Shown here in pieces: positions 4,492-53,674 of a DNA stretch of 64,000 nt. The stretch's first letter is position 1. Each line of letters starts with the position of its first letter. Made by a program: the position numbers and the translations under genes. Origin of the DNA: Octopus vulgaris (taxonomy: Eukaryota); NCBI GenBank assembly GCA_951406725.2, contig OX597831.1, forward strand, positions 30,194,001 through 30,258,000, read 5' to 3'. A model generated the notes under the pieces. That model was not told the origin of the DNA, did no database searches, and worked only from the letters and a program-made list of their open reading frames with translations.

Positions 4492-7400
4492 TCAAACGTT
4501 AGTTATCTTTTTGTGAGTCGGAAGCGGAAGTGGTATGTTAAGGCTGTAGCTGTCACTGACTGTTACGTTCTCTATATTGATGTCATCGAACAAATCTACG
4601 TCACTCATGGCATCAGAGACAAAGAACTCCTCATCGCTGACCAGACCGGGTCGGTAGTTGTCGTATTCAGACTCATAGGCTGTTGAAGCGGAGTCGAAAT
4701 TAAGAGTCGGGTCACTTTTCGACATCTCACTGCTGCTTGCAAACGACGATATGCTGATATTGTCGATGGCCATGGGTTTGCGACCACCACCGAAATATGG
4801 TATTAAATAAGTGTGTTTTATATGAGGACTTCCGGTCGCAGAGGAAGCGTTAGACGACACGTGATCTTCCTTGTCGCTGGGGATGTAATCTAAGCTACGG
4901 CAATATCGTGGAGGCATACTGAATATGGGCCTTCGTTTCACTTGAAACGGGTTCACCGCGATCCGTTGCTGGAGGCTATTGTTGTTGTTGGTATTGTTGG
5001 TATTGCTGCAATGATTAATATTATTGTTGTTATTGTTGTTATTGTTAGTGACACCAGTGCTTGTTTCAGCACCGACACGAGAAATTGCCCCTCCACCACC
5101 AGCACCATTAGCAGAACCGCTAGCACCTGCTCCAGCTGTATCAGCCCCACCAGAAGGGCGTTGTTTAGCGTTTGAGCTCACTGTGGGAGGTGAACGGTGC
5201 CTGGGTTGCCATGCGAAAGATGTTTTGGTCTTCTGAGGATTAACAGAAACACCCACTCGTTCCTCATCACTTTCTTCCACAGAGTTCTCCCGACGTTTTT
5301 TCTTTATATTACTGACCACAGCAGTCGGCAACCGTGAATGCTTTACTGGTTCTAGCAGTACTCTCGGCTTTGCACCAAAGTTTCCGCTCCTACCGTTTAC
5401 ACAAGCCTTGCTCCGATCATTTGCCGGTCCCGGCATTCTCATGTTAGTTACTCCTACAGGGGGTTTACTAGATATGTTGCTCCTGTTGTAAGAGGATTTC
5501 TGTCCTATTGGGGCCACAACAGCAGTGGCTGGCTTCAATGGAGAAGTGACTTTTGCAACAGTCGGAGTAACACACAGCTTCGGTATTCCTGTAGGAGCTC
5601 TTAATTTGCGTTGCTTTAAATCTTCAGATGGAACTGGTTCTTTTTTGACTGGATTTTCAGTGTGATGTTCTTCATCGTCATCATCACCGTCATCATCATC
5701 ATTAACATCTCGCTCGAGGTCGTGCAACAAGCGATTCAGTTGAGTATTGTCACTGTGTAAGCGGATAGGGAACTTTGGTGTCGATGGTGAAGAATAAGGG
5801 CAGCTACTGAGTGTATCACTTGATTTAGAATGACAGACGGAGTTATCTACCCTTGCATTCCTTACAGACGTAGGGGGAGTTTCAGGGCACGAAACCTGTC
5901 GTGTAAATGGTTGTCTAATACCAGATTTGACCTTCAGTTCTATTGGTTTCAGTAGTACAACTGAAGACTGGTTGGAAGAGACAGATTCTAATTCATCGTC
6001 TGAAGTTGTATTTAGAAAACATGGTTCTGTCTGGGACTGAACAACCACTGGGTTACAAACTCCTACAGACGGAATCTTTTTTACATTGCTATCAGCAGTG
6101 TTCAAACTCGGAATGGTACCATCAGACTTTCTTCTTTTATCTGAAGGACCATTGGATTCTGGTTTCCCCCGTGTCTTCTCTGACGGGGAACGCATTAGGC
6201 TAATCTTTTGGTTTTCTTCGTTATCTACTTTTACAACTGCAGCCGGTAATATAGACATATTTTTACCGTCAATACTCGCAAGAATGGACGAAGCTTTAGG
6301 TAAATTAGAAGGTGCTAATTTGGATCTTGTTGAGGATGTTCGACGACTATCACATATCAGTGGTTTCGGTTTTTGTATCAACGGTATGGAATCCAATGAC
6401 ATCGGCTGCGGAGTCACTGTGTTTTTATCCAGTCTTGCTGGAGGGGATTTGGCGCCAGATGGGATCTGTTGTTTCCTTGTATTTTTGTCATATTCAGGAC
6501 TTTGAGGACTTTGGAGGTGACCGCCAGATTGTTTATTATTTTTCGCTAATGAACGTTGAGATTGCTTTCTTTTATTGTCTCTACCGTTCTGTGTCTCATC
6601 TACGACCTCTCCCAGTTCCTTTAACATACAATTCATTGCCAAAATTTCGCTTTCTGGTATTTCCTCTAATATTGGTCCTGTTTCGTAATAGTCTTCCGTC
6701 TGAGTTGGTGATGTCGACGTACGAAGACATTTCCGAATGGCTGACGATCCTGTTACAGCAGGCAATGATGTTGCTTGTGGCATATTAGAGGATCTGGAGG
6801 GAGATGGTATCTTTGACACTTTGTCTCTTGGATGTGGCGGCGCTGATTTACTGGTGCTGCTCTTTGCACTTTCAGGAGACAAATTTTGTCGCGGACAGCT
6901 TCGATGCTGCACTGATCGTTCGACCAGTTCTGGTTCTGTATTAGATTTAAGTTGGTCAAACATTTCGTTTTGAATTGTTGGACTATGAACATTGTCTATA
7001 TTTGCATTGCCGTTGTTCTGCATCTTAACGTTCATATAATGCACTGTTGGTAGTTCAGGAGAATCGACGCAACCGTAAGACACATCAGCGGTTATACAAC
7101 TCGTCAAAGACGAACTACTCAGTTTCCGCAATGGATTACGAACGGACGAATCTCTTGGACTCTCAGTGCTATTTTTTCTTTTCTTATTCAGGCTGCTCGT
7201 AGGAGTACCGTTCGGACCCCTTAGAGAATCTAAGCTTGGTTTTCGTTCAATATTAATTGAACCGTAAACGGATTGAGATTTTCCTTGTGATTTTTGAGAC
7301 CCTTGTCGGTCGAGGTCTTTGCTAACACTGAGACTTTGTGGTACAAGTGGCGCGTTCTCCTTGAAATCTCTTGACGGGGATCTAGATTTGGATAAGCTTT

Positions 7401-7551
7401 CTGCAGTGCTACAGGGACTATACTTCGAAGCAGATCCTTTAAGTCCCATCACGAAATAGGTAACCATGTCACCTTTACCTTTGACTGTTATCCGACCGCG
7501 ACATTTGAAGTCATAGACATCTTTAAGGGCCATGTATACTTCTTCTGTGAC
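4492..7551 (-). CDS. rut: Adenylyl cyclase exon 13 (last coding exon): end of C2a (VTEEVY...CRGRITVKGKGDMVTYF) plus ~980-aa low-complexity C-terminal tail ending KKITNV*
   Basis: cttttacag|GTC acceptor at 7552-7553 extends the listed 1013-aa ORF by six codons; KGKG motif present; a very long C2b tail is typical of invertebrate rutabaga-type cyclases. Confidence 0.95.
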   Translation of the reverse strand, partial: VTEEVYMALKDVYDFKCRGRITVKGKGDMVTYFVMGLKGSASKYSPCSTAESLSKSRSPSRDFKENAPLVPQSLSVSKDLDRQGSQKSQGKSQSVYGSINIERKPSLDSLRGPNGTPTSSLNKKRKNSTESPRDSSVRNPLRKLSSSSLTSCITADVSYGCVDSPELPTVHYMNVKMQNNGNANIDNVHSPTIQNEMFDQLKSNTEPELVERSVQHRSCPRQNLSPESAKSSTSKSAPPHPRDKVSKIPSPSRSSNMPQATSLPAVTGSSAIRKCLRTSTSPTQTEDYYETGPILEEIPESEILAMNCMLKELGEVVDETQNGRDNKRKQSQRSLAKNNKQSGGHLQSPQSPEYDKNTRKQQIPSGAKSPPARLDKNTVTPQPMSLDSIPLIQKPKPLICDSRRTSSTRSKLAPSNLPKASSILASIDGKNMSILPAAVVKVDNEENQKISLMRSPSEKTRGKPESNGPSDKRRKSDGTIPSLNTADSNVKKIPSVGVCNPVVVQSQTEPCFLNTTSDDELESVSSNQSSVVLLKPIELKVKSGIRQPFTRQVSCPETPPTSVRNARVDNSVCHSKSSDTLSSCPYSSPSTPKFPIRLHSDNTQLNRLLHDLERDVNDDDDGDDDDEEHHTENPVKKEPVPSEDLKQRKLRAPTGIPKLCVTPTVAKVTSPLKPATAVVAPIGQKSSYNRSNISSKPPVGVTNMRMPGPANDRSKACVNGRSGNFGAKPRVLLEPVKHSRLPTAVVSNIKKKRRENSVEESDEERVGVSVNPQKTKTSFAWQPRHRSPPTVSSNAKQRPSGGADTAGAGASGSANGAGGGGAISRVGAETSTGVTNNNNNNNNNINHCSNTNNTNNNNSLQQRIAVNPFQVKRRPIFSMPPRYCRSLDYIPSDKEDHVSSNASSATGSPHIKHTYLIPYFGGGRKPMAIDNISISSFASSSEMSKSDPTLNFDSASTAYESEYDNYRPGLVSDEEFFVSDAMSDVDLFDDINIENVTVSDSYSLNIPLPLPTHKKITNV

Positions 7552-7980
7552 CTGTAAAAGAGGAAATAAAATGAGAAATAATTAGCGAGTAAAGAATTAT
7601 AGTTCGTTCGAAAAGCACAAACACACATGCGATCCACTATTAAGGTGTGCTTGTTATTATAATCATACATAAGGCGGACAAAATGCTTAGCAATATTTTG
7701 TCCGTCTTTACGGTCGAAGTTTAAATTCCGCCGAGGTCGACTTTGCCTTTCATCTTTTTGCTGTCGCTAAAATTAGCTCCACTAGACCAAAGGGGTCGAT
7801 ATAATCGACTTACCCCTCCCCCTAACTTGCTGACCTTGTGTGAACGTTTGAAACTATTGTAATTGTACATAAATGATTCAAACAGGAATGCAAACGTTTT
7901 TTAGTAGGTATATAAAGAATATTTTGTCATTTTACGAAGGAGAGCTGACTGAGACTTCGAAGTTTTTTTGTTTTTAGACA

Positions 7981-35639: not shown

Positions 35640-35923
35640 TGATGCAAATAGTCAAACTGCTGGAAAAGAGGTCTATGCGTGTATTCCATTAGGACAATGC
35701 ACACCGTGGCCATTGCTAACATCATGAAAAGTTTGAGCAAGGCCGAGAGTCGCAGAAATATAGACACGCAAATGAAGCTAATGATACAGCTCATATATAT
35801 GTATTGTGGTAGTTCGCATCTCAGGTGACTATCTCCAGTGAAGCTTGTGTTGTCTTCACTCAGCTGGAAGGCAGGTAATTTCGATAGTGTGTAGTTTAGG
35901 ATCAAACTCGGTTGGCAGCAAAA
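35640..35923 (-). CDS. rut: Adenylyl cyclase exon 6, extracellular loop plus TM10-TM11 (FCCQPS...CELPQYIYMSCIISFICVSIFLRLSALLKLFMM...FDYLH)
   Basis: cttttccag| acceptor, CA|gtaagt donor; 284 nt; CxxPxY and FLRLxxxxK motifs of the AC M2 domain; N-glycosylation sequons NYT and NTS. Confidence 0.93.
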
Positions 35924-35990
35924 CTGGAAAAGAGAGACATAAAATAAAAATAGTTAAATACGTTCACAATTAGACACATCGGTAAGTAAA

Positions 35991-36111
<121 letters not shown>

Positions 36112-36116
36112 GCCTG

Positions 36117-36180
<64 letters not shown>

Positions 36181-36288
36181 ACACCTACATTGCTAGAAAT
36201 AAGAGCTAAACCGTTCTAATACTGTAGTAAACGCACATTAATGAAATCATATTCACTAACAGGGACCATAATCTTCCGAAAAGTGCCG

Positions 36289-36357
36289 ATCGAGAATTCT
36301 TAATACTGACGTCAGTTTCGGCAATATCTGTTGCCTCATCAGCTAAGACCGCTCGAT
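36289..36357 (-). ncRNA. Canonical extended type I hammerhead ribozyme motif, intronic, sense to the cyclase pre-mRNA
   Basis: Minus strand: AUCGAG cgg UCUUAG CUGAUGA GGCAA cagaua UUGCC GAAACUG acgu CAGUA/ UUAAGA auu CUCGAU. All core nucleotides and three stems present; predicted cleavage between 36304 and 36303. Confidence 0.85.
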
Positions 36358-37131
36358 TGTTCTGTATTACAGGTTTATATTTATATTTTCGTCATCCAAA
36401 TTATTGGATGGTTTAGCGATTCGCTAATGTGTATATATAAAATTAATATAAATAACAGTTTGCAATGTTTCATCAAAAAACAGAATTATAATTGTCACTG
36501 AATATATATATGCATGTGCATGTCTGTGTATGTATGTGTTTGTGTGTAGGTGTTTAACCGCACAGCGCTAGAAAACTATCTATAATAGAATAAACAATTC
36601 TAAACTGATATAGTCCCTCACTGATTATTGATCGAAATTTAAATCTTCACACATGACGTTCGCTGAGAAGTCATCTGATTTTCAACTGAGCCAGTTCATC
36701 AAATTTCCGTGGTAAAATTGCATGTTACTATTATTACATTATGTCAATGAAATATTTCAAATGTTACACCTGGTTGCATGTAATAAACATTGTTAGTGGA
36801 GAGAAGCTTTTCCTTGGTTATCCACATACTGAGAGAATAATAAGAGGAAGTTAAGGCTTCAACAGATAGGATTAAAGGAGATGAAATAGAGGAGAGTTAC
36901 TAAAGGGACAGAAGTAGGAGACTAAGAAATAGAGATATGAAAGCAAGTATAATCACATAATATGCTGAGGCTGAGAGTGTCCATTGTTAGGTCAATAGTA
37001 AAACGGGAAACGATAGACAAGAAAGCACGAGAGAGTTAAGAGATAGTGATAGATGAATAAATAGATAGATAGATATGTTTCTTTATTATCCACACAGGGC
37101 TGCACACAGACAGAACAAATTACAAGGTAGA

Positions 37132-37182
<51 letters not shown>

Positions 37183-37183
<1 letters not shown>

Positions 37184-37344
37184 GCGTAAGAGTGGCTGTG
37201 TGGTAAGTAGTTTGCTTACCAACCACGTGGTTCCGGGTTCAGCCCCACTGCGTGGCACCTTGGGCAAGTGTCTTCTACTATAGCCTCGGGCCGATCAAAG
37301 CCTTGTGAGTGGATTTGGTAGACAGAAACTGAAAGAAGCCCGTC

Positions 37345-37428
<84 letters not shown>

Positions 37429-37660
37429 ATATGTTTGTGTGTTTGTGTTTGTCACCCCAACATCACTTGACAACCGATGTTAGTGTGTTTATGTCCCCGT
37501 AACTTAGCGGTTCGGCAAGAGAGACCGATAGAATAAGTACTAGGCTTACAAAGAATAAGTTCTGGGGGCGATTTGCTCGACTAAAGGCGGTGCTCCAGCA
37601 TGGCCGCAATCAAATGACTGAAACAAGTAAAAGAGCAAAAAGAGTAAAAGAAGTAAAGAG
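37183..37660 (+). mobile_element. SINE family A
   Basis: Full-length copy, opposite orientation. Confidence 0.85.
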
Positions 37661-38084
37661 AGAAAGAGAAGGAGAGATATATAAATTAGAGGCTGGGTGG
37701 AGTGTGTGTGAAAGAGTGAGAGGAAGAGTGAGAAAGGGAATAAATTTCGTAGTAAATAATTAAGTATTGATTTAGAATTGCTACATGGAAATGAGCATGG
37801 AAAGATAAAATGTTGGAAATATCAAAGATTGTACCGTCATAAAGTAGAGTGAGGTGATAATATCTTTGAGTGGGTTAAGATTTAAAAGGAGAATAAAGAC
37901 ACAGTGGTGAAATATATCGATAAATATTCATGATTTCGTCTGATGGGAATGTTCGTGCTGACCTTGCCGGGAGCAAGGACAAATAGCGGGAGAATGGATT
38001 GGTCTGCGGATGAGTGACCAGCGAGAGTTATGGACTATGCTTTATAGAGTGAGAAGAGGATATAGGTGAAGAAGTATTGCTGCG

Positions 38085-38391
38085 TTGGACGACGACGACG
38101 ACGACGACGACGACGATGGTGATGATGGTGGTGGTGGTGTTGGTGGTGGTGATGGTGATGACGGGGGTGCTAGTGTAGACGATGAAGCGAACGACGACGG
38201 CGATGACTGATGAAGATAAATGCAATGATGATGATAATGAATACCATCATGATGATAATTATGATGATGATGATGATGATGACGATGATGACGATGATGA
38301 CGATGACGATGATTAATAATGATGATGATGCGAACGTCGACGACGATGGCTAATGATGATATGTGCAATGATGATGATTATGAATACCACC

Positions 38392-38431
<40 letters not shown>

Positions 38432-38623
38432 CGATGACAATGATAATAATGATGATGATCATGATTATGATGATGATGGTGGTGGTGGTGATGATGATGA
38501 CAGTGCTGCTAATGTCGATGATGATGCGAACGACGATGATGATGACTGATGATGATGATGATAAATGCAATGATGATGATAATGAATACCACCATGATGC
38601 TGTTGGTGATGATGATGTTGAAA

Positions 38624-38657
<34 letters not shown>

Positions 38658-38846
38658 CGACGACGACGATGACGACAACAACGAAGTTGGCGATGACGGT
38701 GATGGTGATGGTGATAATGATAATGATAAATATAATGATGATAAGAATGACCACGATAGCGATATTTATGGTATTGATAACGATGGGGACTACGACGACG
38801 ACGGCGATAATGATGATGGTGATGATGATGATGATGATGATGATGC

Positions 38847-38879
<33 letters not shown>

Positions 38880-38885
38880 CGAATG
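38085..38885. repeat. (GAT/GAC)n microsatellite field with recurring 40-bp motif
   Basis: tgcaatgatgatga..atgaatacca.catgatg recurs three times. Confidence 0.95.
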
Positions 38886-39254
38886 AATGAAATAGATACA
38901 AATATTTAACTTCCTGTTCTGAATTTTATATGGAGCTGAGGAATTGTTAAGCGTTCGGGGAATTAATCTAATGTATAAACGCGCTGGTGTGATGTTGCAA
39001 AGAGGAAGTGACTGGCTAAAAGGGAGATGGAAGGGGGGAAAAAAAGGGATAGAACGAAAGAAGAGAGAGAGAACAAAGAAAGAAGGGGGGGAGAGAAAGA
39101 GAGTAAAGAAGGAAGGGATCGAAAGGCGAAAGGAAGAAGAAGAAGTATAAGGGAAAGAGTGATTAAAATATATGATACATGATTGGCTTTCAGCGACATC
39201 TAATTTGTAATGTTGCGGAAGAATACTAATGGATGTCCATGCAAAGTAAATGCA

Positions 39255-39262
39255 TATATTTA

Positions 39263-39354
<92 letters not shown>

Positions 39355-39376
39355 TATATATATATATATATATATA

Positions 39377-39414
<38 letters not shown>

Positions 39415-39645
39415 GTATGCATGTATGTATGTATATGTATATATATATTCATATATATATTTATATATATATATATATGTATGTATGTATATGTATATAT
39501 ATGTTCATATATATATTTATATATGTTCATATATATATTTATATATATATATATTTATATATGTTCATATATATATTTATATATATATATATGTATATAT
39601 GTTCATATATATTTATATATATTTATATATATATATGTCCATATA

Positions 39646-39723
<78 letters not shown>

Positions 39724-39750
39724 TATATATACATATATACATATACATAG
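39255..39750. repeat. Long (TA)n-derived tract
   Basis: One of many TA/CA/GA tracts in the window. Confidence 0.95.
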
Positions 39751-40990
39751 ATATTATAAGTTGGTGTGTATGCGGGTGACACTATTAACAATTGCATACA
39801 TAAACACAAAATTACATAAAAACATACACACGCGCGTGCGCATCTACATATATTTACTATATGTGTGTTTGTGTGTGTGCGTGTGTGTAAAGCATGTATG
39901 CGAATGTTTGGTTAGTTTGTGGAGCTGTGGATGTACACAAGGAAGTGGATTTTAGTATGCGTAATGAAAAGATAATACATTTCTACTAAACCATTAGAAT
40001 ATAATTGAACAAGATGTGTGCGTGTGTGTGTGAGAGAGAGAGAGTGTGTGCGTGAGTGTGTGTGCTTGTGTGTGTATGCGTATGGGTGTGTAAAGTCGGT
40101 CTGGCATGCTATAAACTGCATTCTTCTCTCACTACATCTTCAATATGGTCCTGGGAGCTTAATTGTAATGAAGAATCAACGCCAAAGTTGCATGACATCC
40201 ACTTCACGTGGATACATGTTGTGTGCACTACAGAGGAATTTGGATACATTCTTGTACAAATGATTTATGTTAAAAAAAATATTCAAATGTCTGATGATTC
40301 TGAAATTTGGTTAATTTGAAATAAATTTGTTCTAAAATCGAAGAATTGATCCCACTAATTTGATAATCCTTGAGTCTAAGACATCACTCACACTTTTGTC
40401 TATCGGAAAATATTTTTTCTCTATAGCAGGTGAAGAATTCTGAAGACATAACTGTGAGCAAATTTTCAACACAAGATTGAAATTATCCTGTATTGTTTGT
40501 TTTGCTGTCATGATGTTGATATATAAGTATACATACAAACATACGTACAATATCTATCTCTCAATCTATCTTTCTATCTATGTATCTCTCTCTCTCTCTC
40601 CCTATATATATGTATATATATATATATATGAATAAATAAATGGAGTTTAACGCAGGTGTAAGTCAAATATTTTTACTTTCGACACATGTTTCCACTGATA
40701 CTATTCAAAAGAATAAATGGTATATATATATGCAGAGAAATATATGCCATGTCTTTATTGACATTTACTAATTACGTCATCCTATGGAGGCGAAGACAAT
40801 TCTAAGAAACCAAGAATGTATGTCGCATGGTATTTGATATACCTGTATTTGTCTATGTTGATCAAATACACGCTACTGGTCACACTGAGTTCTCTTAAAT
40901 CGTGGCTGTGTGGTAAGAAGCTTATATGTATGTAAGGAGTTATATATGTATGTATACATATATATATACATACATACATACATATATATG

Positions 40991-41040
<50 letters not shown>

Positions 41041-41044
<4 letters not shown>

Positions 41045-41340
41045 AAGCTTTATGAAAATAGACAAAAGACGAAGGCAGGTGGAAAACAAACAAACAATTG
41101 TATTAGTATGGCGCTCAGGAAATATAAATAAAACAAGTCTTTAACGTTTCGAGCCTACGCTCTTCAACAGAAAGATACACAGAGAAAAAAAAACACAGAA
41201 AGAAGGAGAGAAAAAATTGTGCGTGCAGTAACTAACGAATCAACATGGCGATCTGATTTCGGCCAGAAGTCAAAGATCAAACATGAGACGCGAGAGCGAA
41301 ATTAGGGGAGATAATAGGGTTGAATGACCTACTCGAACAT
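41041..41340 (-). mobile_element. Short hammerhead-bearing repeat, copy 4 (sense to the host gene)
   Basis: Minus strand tcttt CTGTTGA a gagc gtag gctc GAAAC GTT aaaga at 41175-41138; abuts (TA)n. Confidence 0.65.
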
Positions 41341-41552
41341 AAGGGTGTGTGTGTGTGTGTGTGTGTATGAGAGAGTATTAGTGCGTATGAGAGGTCTGGA
41401 CGTGTGTATGTATATATGATGTGATGTGTAAAGTCGTGTGGTGTAGTGTGGAGATAGGAGAAGAGGGGGGAAAGAGGATGGGGGAGAAGAGGGGGAGGAG
41501 AGGAGGGGAGGGGGAGATAGGAGGGGGAGAAGGAAGGGGAGGAGGAAGGAGG

Positions 41553-41606
<54 letters not shown>

Positions 41607-42040
41607 GCATACACACACACACACACACACACACATAGACACATACGCACTCACACATCTTACGCTAAGGTATATGCGTCTATATCCATACTAAATTTGT
41701 GCTCTTATGCAAAAATTGTCTTTATTACAATTCATTGTTATTTTTTATTCGAATTCATTATCGTGATTATCATGGCTATTAACTCAATCTTTTTACATTA
41801 GTTACATATCAATACTTCCTTTCGGTCGAATCTACATTAGATGACTTATGGGAATTGCGTAATTTGTTGCACAGAGCGTTAAATGTAGTATAGATATAAA
41901 TATTGCTAATATTTATACAAAATGGTGATTAACAACTTAGGGAATTGTGGTTCGGCTGTGATGGATACGTCTCTAATAAAATGCATTCCAACCATGACTA
42001 TCGTGTATTTTTCTTAGACGTATTGCATTTAAGATTGCAT

Positions 42041-42980
42041 TACGAAGTTCGGATGAAAAGTTCGTAGGATGTCTATGAAGGAGTGACACTAGAGCTGTGA
42101 ATTCTTGCATGCATTAGTTTCATCACTTCTTATTAATAACTGCATTGCTTCTTTACAGATAAACTGACATCTTACTGTTCAAAGAAGACTTCAAAAGTAA
42201 CTAGTGGCAACTTCTCTTGAAAATAGACAAAATTTAGTACCGTGGTGTTATTAAGTGCCTGCAGAAGAAGGGTCCAGTCCCAAGCGACATTCATGCTGAC
42301 ACGGTTGCTACATTAGAGGATAGCTCTCCAGTTTTACCAACAGTGCAAAAGGAGGCAGCTGAATATGGGAGGTGAAGGGAGAGTGTTGAAGATGATTCAA
42401 GGCCTGGACGTCCTGCAATTTCCACCACCAACCAAAACATTGATCGTGTTCACCACATGATGATGGATTATATGCGTTTGAAATGAATGAAATAACGAAT
42501 GCTATAGGCACATCTCGTGAGAGAGCTGAGAATATTCTGCGTTACAAAGTTGGTGTGACAAAGGTTCTTTTTCTATTTTGTTTGATGGGTGTCTCGTCTT
42601 CTGACACATGATCAATAGCGCATCAGGCTGATCCCTTCACGGTAGAATCTGACATTGCTTGAGGCAGAATCAGTTAGTTTCTTTGAGCGTTTCCAAAGAC
42701 AGGTTAAGTGTTAGGTTCATCACCTTGAGCCAGAAACAATGAGACAAATCATGTAGTAGAAACACTCCTTCTCACCTCCAAAGAAAGCCAAAATGGTTTC
42801 ACCTGCAGGGAAAATAATGACTTTAAGGTTTTTGGGATGCAGAAGGCATTGCATTTATTGAATATCTTCAAAAGGGCCACACCATCGATGAAGAGTACTA
42901 GGCAACCTTGCTGAGGCAGTTACGAAAGGCTGTCAAGACCAAATGCCCAGGAAAACTGACGTAAGGGGGTCTTGTTGCAT
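42041..42980 (+). mobile_element. Degenerate mariner transposon
   Basis: tacgaag...gaaaagtt TIR-like start; broken frames give GRESVEDD..GRP, FWDAEGI and NLLRQLRKAVKTKCPGKL. Confidence 0.8.
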
Positions 42981-43518
42981 CCACCTACTCCAAAAACATC
43001 CGGTCATAACGCACCTGGCTTCCACTCACCACCAACACGGGTCATAACGTACCAGGCATTGCCAAAAGGGCCCGATAGAATCCACCAGTCCCTAACAAGG
43101 AACCGCCCGACATGTAAAAAAAAAACCCATACGAGACACATACAATGCTCCGTTCTTCCTTTCAATGGAAGCTGTGCATAGGCTGTGGCGTTGGACTGAT
43201 TGGTCACTCGTCTTAATTTCCTGATTAAATCGGCTGTTGATGAGTTTTTGACCAACAGGATGAAAGCTTTTTCACCAATGGGATCCAAATACACATACAC
43301 ACACATATACACGTATGCACACACACATACATATTTGCATCAAGCTTGGGTTTATCTGCATTGATACCTCCATACCAGTTCTGTTTTGATTATTTACGCT
43401 GTGGACTTTGTCTTGGGTGAAGAAGCCGGAATTAACTTCAAATTCATTCGAGCATTTCTATCTGTTTCTATACGGATCTTAGCTAGCTTTCAACTACTGA
43501 CTGTATATTTATACATAC

Positions 43519-43612
<94 letters not shown>

Positions 43613-44010
43613 CACACACACATATTTATATGTATATATACACGAATGGACAAACGAAAGAAAAGAAAACACAACACAGTAGGAGCTACATGTAATATTT
43701 AAAACAATTATTTTATTCGGATCCGTACTATTTCAAGTTTCGTACGCCCCTAACAGAAATCTGAAGCAGTCGAACTCCCGTGAGGGGCCTGGGAAACTTG
43801 AAGTAGCACGGAGCCGAATCAAACTGCTTTAAATAATATGTGTATGTATGTATGTATGTATGTATGTATGTATGTATGTATGTATGTATGTATGTACGTG
43901 TGTTTGTTTGAGTGTGTGATTGTTTATCCGTGTATGTTTTTGTGATTGTGGAAACCTTAGCGAGACTTGGTGTAAATAGATGTAAACTTAACAAAGTCTG
44001 AGCTACTCAC

Positions 44011-53343: not shown

Positions 53344-53674
53344 AAGTAGATAAATGAATTATCTTATTACGGATAATTCAAATGATAACCGATACCTGGG
53401 TAGCAAAAATCACAACAGAAAAAGCACGGTTGAGGTTACGACCATGGGGCCTAAAATCCGTGCCTTAGTGCGGAAATTTGAAGTGAGCGTTTGTCAAAAA
53501 GCTTGCTGTGCATTTTGTTGGAGAATTAAGTTCCTGGATTTTCCTGAAGAGAAGGCTGCAAAATGGACTCCTTATTCAATCCGAATTAGGGACTTTGCAG
53601 CCTTTGAAACATATGTAGAAAATAATAAAAAGGAATTTTGTTAAATCTTCGTTCAGCTCCATTTCTTCCTACAC

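Follow-up and report, generated by a model that had tools for sequence, protein, structure and literature searches.

The window analysed here, a stretch of 64,000 nucleotides from Octopus vulgaris, carries on its minus strand the gene of a transmembrane adenylyl cyclase, onto which the protein P0003 could be mapped exon by exon. P0003 matches the window's last exon by 100% and bears the source name "adenylate cyclase type 1-like [Octopus vulgaris]"; Ca(2+)/calmodulin-responsive cyclase-like is the name attached to related proteins of molluscs. A PDB search with the cyclase gave AC5 as the best chains, followed by AC8, and no AC1 chain was among those listed, so that the subtype is not settled by the structure search. 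In a first-pass annotation of this DNA the enzyme had been termed "rutabaga-type". The assignment to the transmembrane adenylyl cyclases stands; for the subtype, this label and type 1-like reflect names given by the sources and not a subtype tree. Beyond the second catalytic domain, the last exon (4492-7557, minus strand) codes for a further tail of some 1000 residues, the last 180 of which share 55-62% identity with two gastropod proteins. A frame of 1029 amino acids at 4492-7581, considered as a retroelement, was rejected as such and represents this exon.

The intron of interest extends over positions 35924..44010 on the minus strand (8087 bp, GT-AG borders) and is followed by an exon at 35642..35923, which encodes residues 493-586 of P0003 within the second membrane cassette. 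This exon had been called exon 6. It is the sixth within the window and the number is not gene-wide, as no match to residues 1-336 of P0003 was found in the window or the adjoining 10 kb. A second, very high-copy repeat lies just upstream in the same intron (37040-37300), and a contig match of the related organism E ends at position 37039.

Sequence inspection and a descriptor scan revealed a type I hammerhead motif at 36357-36289 on the minus strand, which is the sense strand of the cyclase gene. The conserved core is present with CUGAUGA, GAA(A) and the cleavage triplet GUA, and is surrounded by three helices of which helix I is open. Stem I consists of six distal base pairs, a 3x3 internal loop and six proximal base pairs including one G-U, stem II of five base pairs with a 6-nt loop, and helix III of four base pairs embedded in a 12-nt palindrome (36305..36316, minus strand). 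The geometry for a contact between loop II and helix I, i.e., six base pairs followed by an internal loop, is present in this copy, and loop II departs from the family majority at two of its six positions. The predicted scissile bond lies between 36304 and 36303 on the minus strand, 380 nt upstream of the acceptor, which agrees with the distance of about 380 nt proposed earlier.

The scan of both strands of the window yielded this one strong match and one loose match. In 40 simulated windows of matched dinucleotide make-up no strong and four loose matches were obtained, and because none of the simulated windows contained an equally strong match the motif is real and beyond chance. The first-pass description of a full core, stems II and III and a bipartite stem I was thereby confirmed. 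The loose match at 53544 on the plus strand has a helix II region of 55 nt, is antisense to the gene and is of the kind that simulated windows also yield. The Rfam hammerhead models, which had been suggested as a check, found no match, whether applied to the window or, with the cutoff relaxed to E<=10, to 36150-36550, and four other loci of the repeat family described below were likewise without a match at E<=1; the models miss the whole family. Weak Rfam matches to snoRNAs and miRNAs were rejected, as their scores were far below the gathering scores.

The motif is part of a dispersed repeat. BLAST similarity to 29 other loci spans 36503-36180 and ends at both positions, and BLAST ends, alignment and unit profile together define a single incomplete copy at 36180..36503 (minus strand), which comprises 324 bp of a unit of about 355 nt. 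The match of the unit profile (36501-36178, E 2.5e-100) is the sole strong one, and no second copy of the unit was found within the window by this search. The copy lacks the last approximately 28 nt of the unit and also the terminal duplication which most copies have. At its 3' end it adjoins a tetranucleotide microsatellite (35991..36180, minus strand); when looked at for a target site duplication, both ends were found to adjoin simple repeats. Just 5' of the motif, at 36358..36385 on the minus strand, the alignment shows a private 14-nt deletion together with replaced sequence. This junction is unique in the own genome (one candidate), serves as a locus-specific marker, and removes the 5' arm of a 13-bp outer extension of helix I that is typical of the family. 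The earlier wording "intact extended" hammerhead thus holds for the 69 nt of the motif, and fails for the further extension, which is destroyed in this copy. An active retrozyme, as Li et al. (10.64898/2026.07.22.740005) use the term in the accessible part of their paper, consists of head-to-tail tandem copies with a hammerhead in each. The present locus is not an active retrozyme because it is a single incomplete unit.

When 251 bases containing the motif were used as a query against the own genome, 831 first-look candidates were obtained, the best 40 of which were scored and gave 55 matches; full-length matches among these best 40 are 78-84% alike. An exact pattern consisting of core and helix II was found 55 times, compared with zero for the reversed control, and the counts from both searches are lower bounds. 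A dimer DNA query returned 1527 candidates. The identical genomic copies considered in the first-pass annotation do not exist in this set, in which copies are 80-90% alike. The unit length follows from a direct self-repeat in 21 of 30 loci, with a period of 343-357 in 19 of these, and the G+C content of the family is 33-35%. Copies share a common 3' end about 70 nt into a further unit, and their 5' end is variable, often with an inverted piece. A microsatellite lies no more than 160 nt from where the unit ends in 21 of 30 family loci as compared to 7 of 30 control stretches. Longer copies continue head-to-tail into another unit and not into an ORF, the longest one seen among the scored candidates reaching about 2.1 units. 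Two core-intact motifs 338 nt apart were detected at one locus (L122) and a decayed dimer at another (L024); among the scored copies there was neither a long tandem array nor a dimer with two fully paired ribozymes. A diverged piece related to the 3' third of the unit was found at L091:4509-4620 (E 1.6e-7), which suggests that older related subfamilies exist. This piece lies near the element at L091, was considered as a partner link and was judged to be a separate insertion.

No reading frame belongs to the unit, as judged from 80 loci surveyed with 1.5 kb flanks, some of which overlap. A Penelope-like protein match was located near the unit in one of 60 loci and then in one of 20 further loci, with one additional weak match (E 0.009). 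The Penelope-like neighbors at L035 and L118 were rejected as the unit's own ORF; they are separate insertions, with an own terminal repeat and a TA run in between. Autonomous elements with reverse transcriptase (RT) and GIY-YIG domains are present in the own genome, some with whole frames of 781 amino acids. The unit forms the terminal repeat in none of 30 GIY-YIG loci and in none of 20 loci of a second element, and no sequence link was detected between the unit and any particular autonomous element examined.

These results bear on the alternative that the unit is not a retrozyme of its own and derives, as a solo pseudo-LTR, from an autonomous Penelope-like element, the ORF-bearing copies of which escaped the searches. 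The fixed 3' end with a tail, the 5' truncation and inversion and the microsatellite targets are Penelope-like traits (PMC8557442, accessible part), and each search scored its best 40 candidates. However, the longer copies run into a further unit and not into an ORF, the 30 GIY-YIG loci and the 20 loci of the second element do not use the unit as terminal repeat, and metazoan Penelope-like hammerheads are, in the available text of PMC4209133, usually minimal, whereas this one is canonical. We regard this alternative as improbable.

Two Penelope-like families came to light in the course of these searches. The sequence L092:2405-7200 (C16:20833001-20843000) is a complete element with a 781-aa RT and GIY-YIG frame, an upstream frame of 359 amino acids, short internal tandem repeats in its 3' region and a TA-run end. 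It was considered as autonomous partner and rejected, having no sequence link to the unit, and no hammerhead was detected in it by a descriptor requiring C3-G8. Because many loci show the identical frame length of 781 amino acids, this family is likely recent. The other Penelope-like family (L035:1140-1190; L096-L115, e.g., C23:45246331-45246929), which is separate and younger and contains remnants of RT/GIY-YIG, has 1913 first-look candidates, and its copies are 90-95% alike. Its terminal repeat includes what appears to be a minimal hammerhead-like motif in which A3-U8 replaces the C3-G8 core pair. Its helix II has two base pairs, its helix III is a palindrome of 6 nt, the site is GUC, and helix I shows an A-U/G-C change; the pattern fits 20 of 20 aligned copies. 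A U3-A8 core variant has already been published (PMC3088659, PMC4209133, both accessible in part), and no report of an A3-U8 variant was found in our literature search.

A tree of 66 non-redundant copies, each covering at least 250 model positions, is star-like with end branches of about 0.1 (0.094 for this copy) and a bootstrap that is not settled. The best pairwise identity among these copies is 90%, and no young copy was present among those scored. Because of the star-like tree and the limited likeness of the copies, the family and this copy look old. The remark in the first-pass annotation that the motif might be a young Penelope-derived remnant with no host function is hence right in part: the remnant reading fits best, and the copy is old.

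Decay is even along the copy. Relative to the column majority it differs at 3 of 69 positions in the ribozyme and at 14 of 216 outside (p=0.77), not counting 28 positions just 5' of the motif, where deletion and replaced sequence lie. The other copies differ by 12.4% in the ribozyme and by 11.4% outside, so that, relative to the family mean, 3/69 is a low value (p=0.022), which it is not relative to the copy's own flanks (p=0.34). In divergence this copy ranks near the bottom of the family, since outside the ribozyme just 2 of 64 others are equally close to a majority that is itself biased toward it, since the copy sets were picked by likeness to this copy. The core is kept in 36 of 65 other copies and the core with all 14 proximal pairs in 4 of 65; among copies found without the ribozyme as query (n=29) the respective values are 7 and 1. 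Covariation among 27 copies did not go beyond that of shuffles.

Contigs of related organisms, taken from 4 of 24 listed runs, carry the private junction in two cases. The contig of organism D covers 36313-36407 with one other letter and one gap, that of organism E 36335-36410 with four other letters and one gap, both at about single-copy depth. The upstream intron flanks differ at 17 of 536 positions in organism D and at 43 of 509 in organism E. Over 45 nt of the ribozyme no difference is listed for the organism D contig, and ribozyme conservation lies within the neutral flank expectation for both organisms (p=0.23 and 0.22, with little power). No listed contig of organism B has the junction, and none bridges the border between flank and element in organisms B, D or E, so that orthology is read from the private junction itself. 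Because organisms D and E have this junction, they probably share the insertion, which would then predate these splits. Absence from orthologous introns, which the first-pass annotation regarded as speaking against a host role, was therefore not observed.

Among the runs listed for this locus none is on record as RNA. In run X2, which can only be guessed to be RNA, a single contig spans 36287-37113 and ends 17 nt past the predicted cut site; there is no cover at 36254-36285 and, unlike in the DNA runs, no paralog depth over the ribozyme. The overhang of 17 nt is below the 31-letter bridging rule and comes from one study, and the contig is counted neither for nor against cleavage.

These observations allow an evaluation of the idea that a copy of the same origin has been exapted and cuts the nascent cyclase pre-mRNA, thereby tuning splicing or mRNA output as has been reported for the ribozyme in the Cpeb3 intron and proposed for the amniote hammerheads. 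Precedents exist (PMC10919898, PMC6155905, both accessible in part), and the sense orientation at 380 nt from the acceptor, the low divergence rank, the private junction found in two organisms with differing flanks and the intact core with all 14 proximal pairs, matched in so few other copies, are in accordance with it. Against this, conservation of the ribozyme exceeds neither that of the rest of the copy nor that of the flanks in organisms D and E, helix I has lost its outer part, and, given that candidates number in the hundreds and 4 of 65 copies are intact, several intact sense-intronic copies would be expected by chance. Together with the folding predictions, according to which the lone ribozyme would be inactive, and with the lack of a partner copy in the window, this makes an exapted function very unlikely.

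In these ViennaRNA predictions the hammerhead fold is not the minimum-energy fold of the single strand. The 3' half of the palindrome is predicted to engage the catalytic box and thereby to extend helix I through the core. Relative to the ensemble, the active monomer costs 4.9 kcal/mol in each of five contexts and 3.4-4.2 kcal/mol for three fully paired paralogs. The two-strand minimum, by contrast, is exactly the active double hammerhead (-50.5 versus -43.6 kcal/mol for two folded monomers), in which the palindrome at 36305..36316 forms a 12-bp duplex. The remark that the palindrome could also fold as a dimer was thus supported by the model. The two commonest forms of helix III in the family, with 12 and 14 nt, are both palindromes. 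The lone monomer is hence predicted to be inactive and the dimer to be active, and as the window is without a second copy the intronic copy would be mostly silent. The palindromic helix III and the dimer minimum are in line with published descriptions of type I hammerheads in repeats, which act as dimers such that multimers are cut and monomers spared (PMC4209133; PMC3088659, PMC6155905; available in part). Taken with the multi-copy nature of the repeat and the lack of excess conservation, the predicted inactivity of the monomer leaves the proposed coupling of nascent-transcript cleavage to splicing without support.

It is conceivable that the relic, although unselected, still cuts a small share of the transcripts, as a tolerated leak and not as a tuned function. 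ViennaRNA ignores tertiary contacts, and most invertebrate retrozyme hammerheads self-cleave efficiently according to the accessible text of PMC7229834, so that the monomer may cut better than predicted. For the hammerheads of cloned single retrozyme repeats, co-transcriptional cleavage rates of about 0.1 per min (mussel) and 0.8 per min (coral) are given there, and core and stems of the octopus copy are intact. On the other hand, a penalty of 4.9 kcal/mol is predicted for the active monomer, and only one of nine Xenopus retrozyme dimers is reported to be cleaved in vitro in the available part of Li, Clavereau and Pollet (2026, 10.64898/2026.07.22.740005). We consider such a leak rather unlikely, yet less so than the other alternatives; it differs from the explanation we favor by degree, and the two overlap.

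The favored explanation, which we hold to be quite probable, is that the motif belongs to a decayed copy of a repeat of about 355 nt, likely a non-LTR retrozyme (a non-coding, non-autonomous element dependent on Penelope-like retroelements), and that this copy likely is an old insertion in the intron and likely has no selected host role. The anatomy would fit a non-LTR retrozyme monomer on the features tested. We infer the class and the mobilizing element, as no long array, fully paired dimer or sequence link to an autonomous element was found. In a single strand the catalytic box would be concealed by base pairing with one half of the palindrome of helix III, and two ribozymes could pair via the palindrome to form an active double hammerhead. 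During the life cycle of the element, multimeric transcripts might cut themselves to unit length and then be circularized; a Penelope-like reverse transcriptase and endonuclease might convert the circles into more-than-unit cDNA that returns to the genome at microsatellites. Within a pre-mRNA, a lone copy would be expected to cut slowly or rarely. Because the motif is part of a decayed copy of a multi-copy repeat with poor predicted cleavage on its own, it likely represents an ordinary passenger and not a switch of the gene.

As read here, the locus adds one more mollusc retrozyme-like family and one intronic relic. The family is new for octopus in the literature searched, in which no published description of it was found (supplements and most subscription papers lie outside this search). 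A small mechanistic point is the predicted switch, with the monomer off and the dimer on, that would arise from a palindrome of 12 or 14 nt. The finding would gain far greater weight if the copy were cut in neurons and selectively conserved. In octopods, a single copy from an extinct family of retrozymes might then have been domesticated to cut co-transcriptionally in the intron of a Ca/calmodulin-type adenylyl cyclase, with the palindrome as an off switch that a partner RNA or protein could flip. This scenario is highly doubtful; if true, it would be an invertebrate parallel of the Cpeb3 ribozyme in a learning gene.

The comparison with known systems is based on the accessible parts of the cited papers. 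With the amniote intronic hammerheads of RECK and C10orf118 and the HDV-like ribozyme of Cpeb3 (PMC3088659, PMC6155905, PMC10919898) the octopus motif shares the position in an intron, the sense strand and a proposed origin from retroelements. Unlike it, these ribozymes are conserved across an animal class and have been shown to cleave, whereas the octopus motif, a putative ribozyme, is one of many copies and decays at the rate of its copy. The hammerheads of Penelope-like pseudo-LTRs (Cervera and De la Pena, 2014, PMC4209133; PMC8557442) resemble it in the palindromic helix III, which suits dimer cleavage, in direct and inverted partial copies, in the tail and in the microsatellite targets; they are mostly minimal and flank an RT-endonuclease ORF, whereas the octopus hammerhead is canonical and has no ORF attached. 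The closest system are the metazoan non-LTR retrozymes, e.g., the 350-390 bp repeats of Mytilus galloprovincialis (Cervera and De la Pena, 2020, PMC7229834; 10.64898/2026.07.22.740005). In contrast to these, the octopus copies seen are all decayed, reach at most about 2.1 units without long arrays, and none of them is young. Their helix III has four base pairs in a 12- or 14-nt palindrome instead of the usual one or two, helix I has a long outer extension, and the family is known from DNA and not from circular RNA. Common to both are a canonical type I hammerhead within a non-coding, multi-copy repeat of 150-450 bp and low GC content (<50%), the occurrence of monomers and dimers, and autonomous Penelope-like elements in the same genome. 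Many retrozyme copies are also intronic, like the octopus copy, with about 44% of those of X. tropicalis located in introns (Li et al., 10.64898/2026.07.22.740005).
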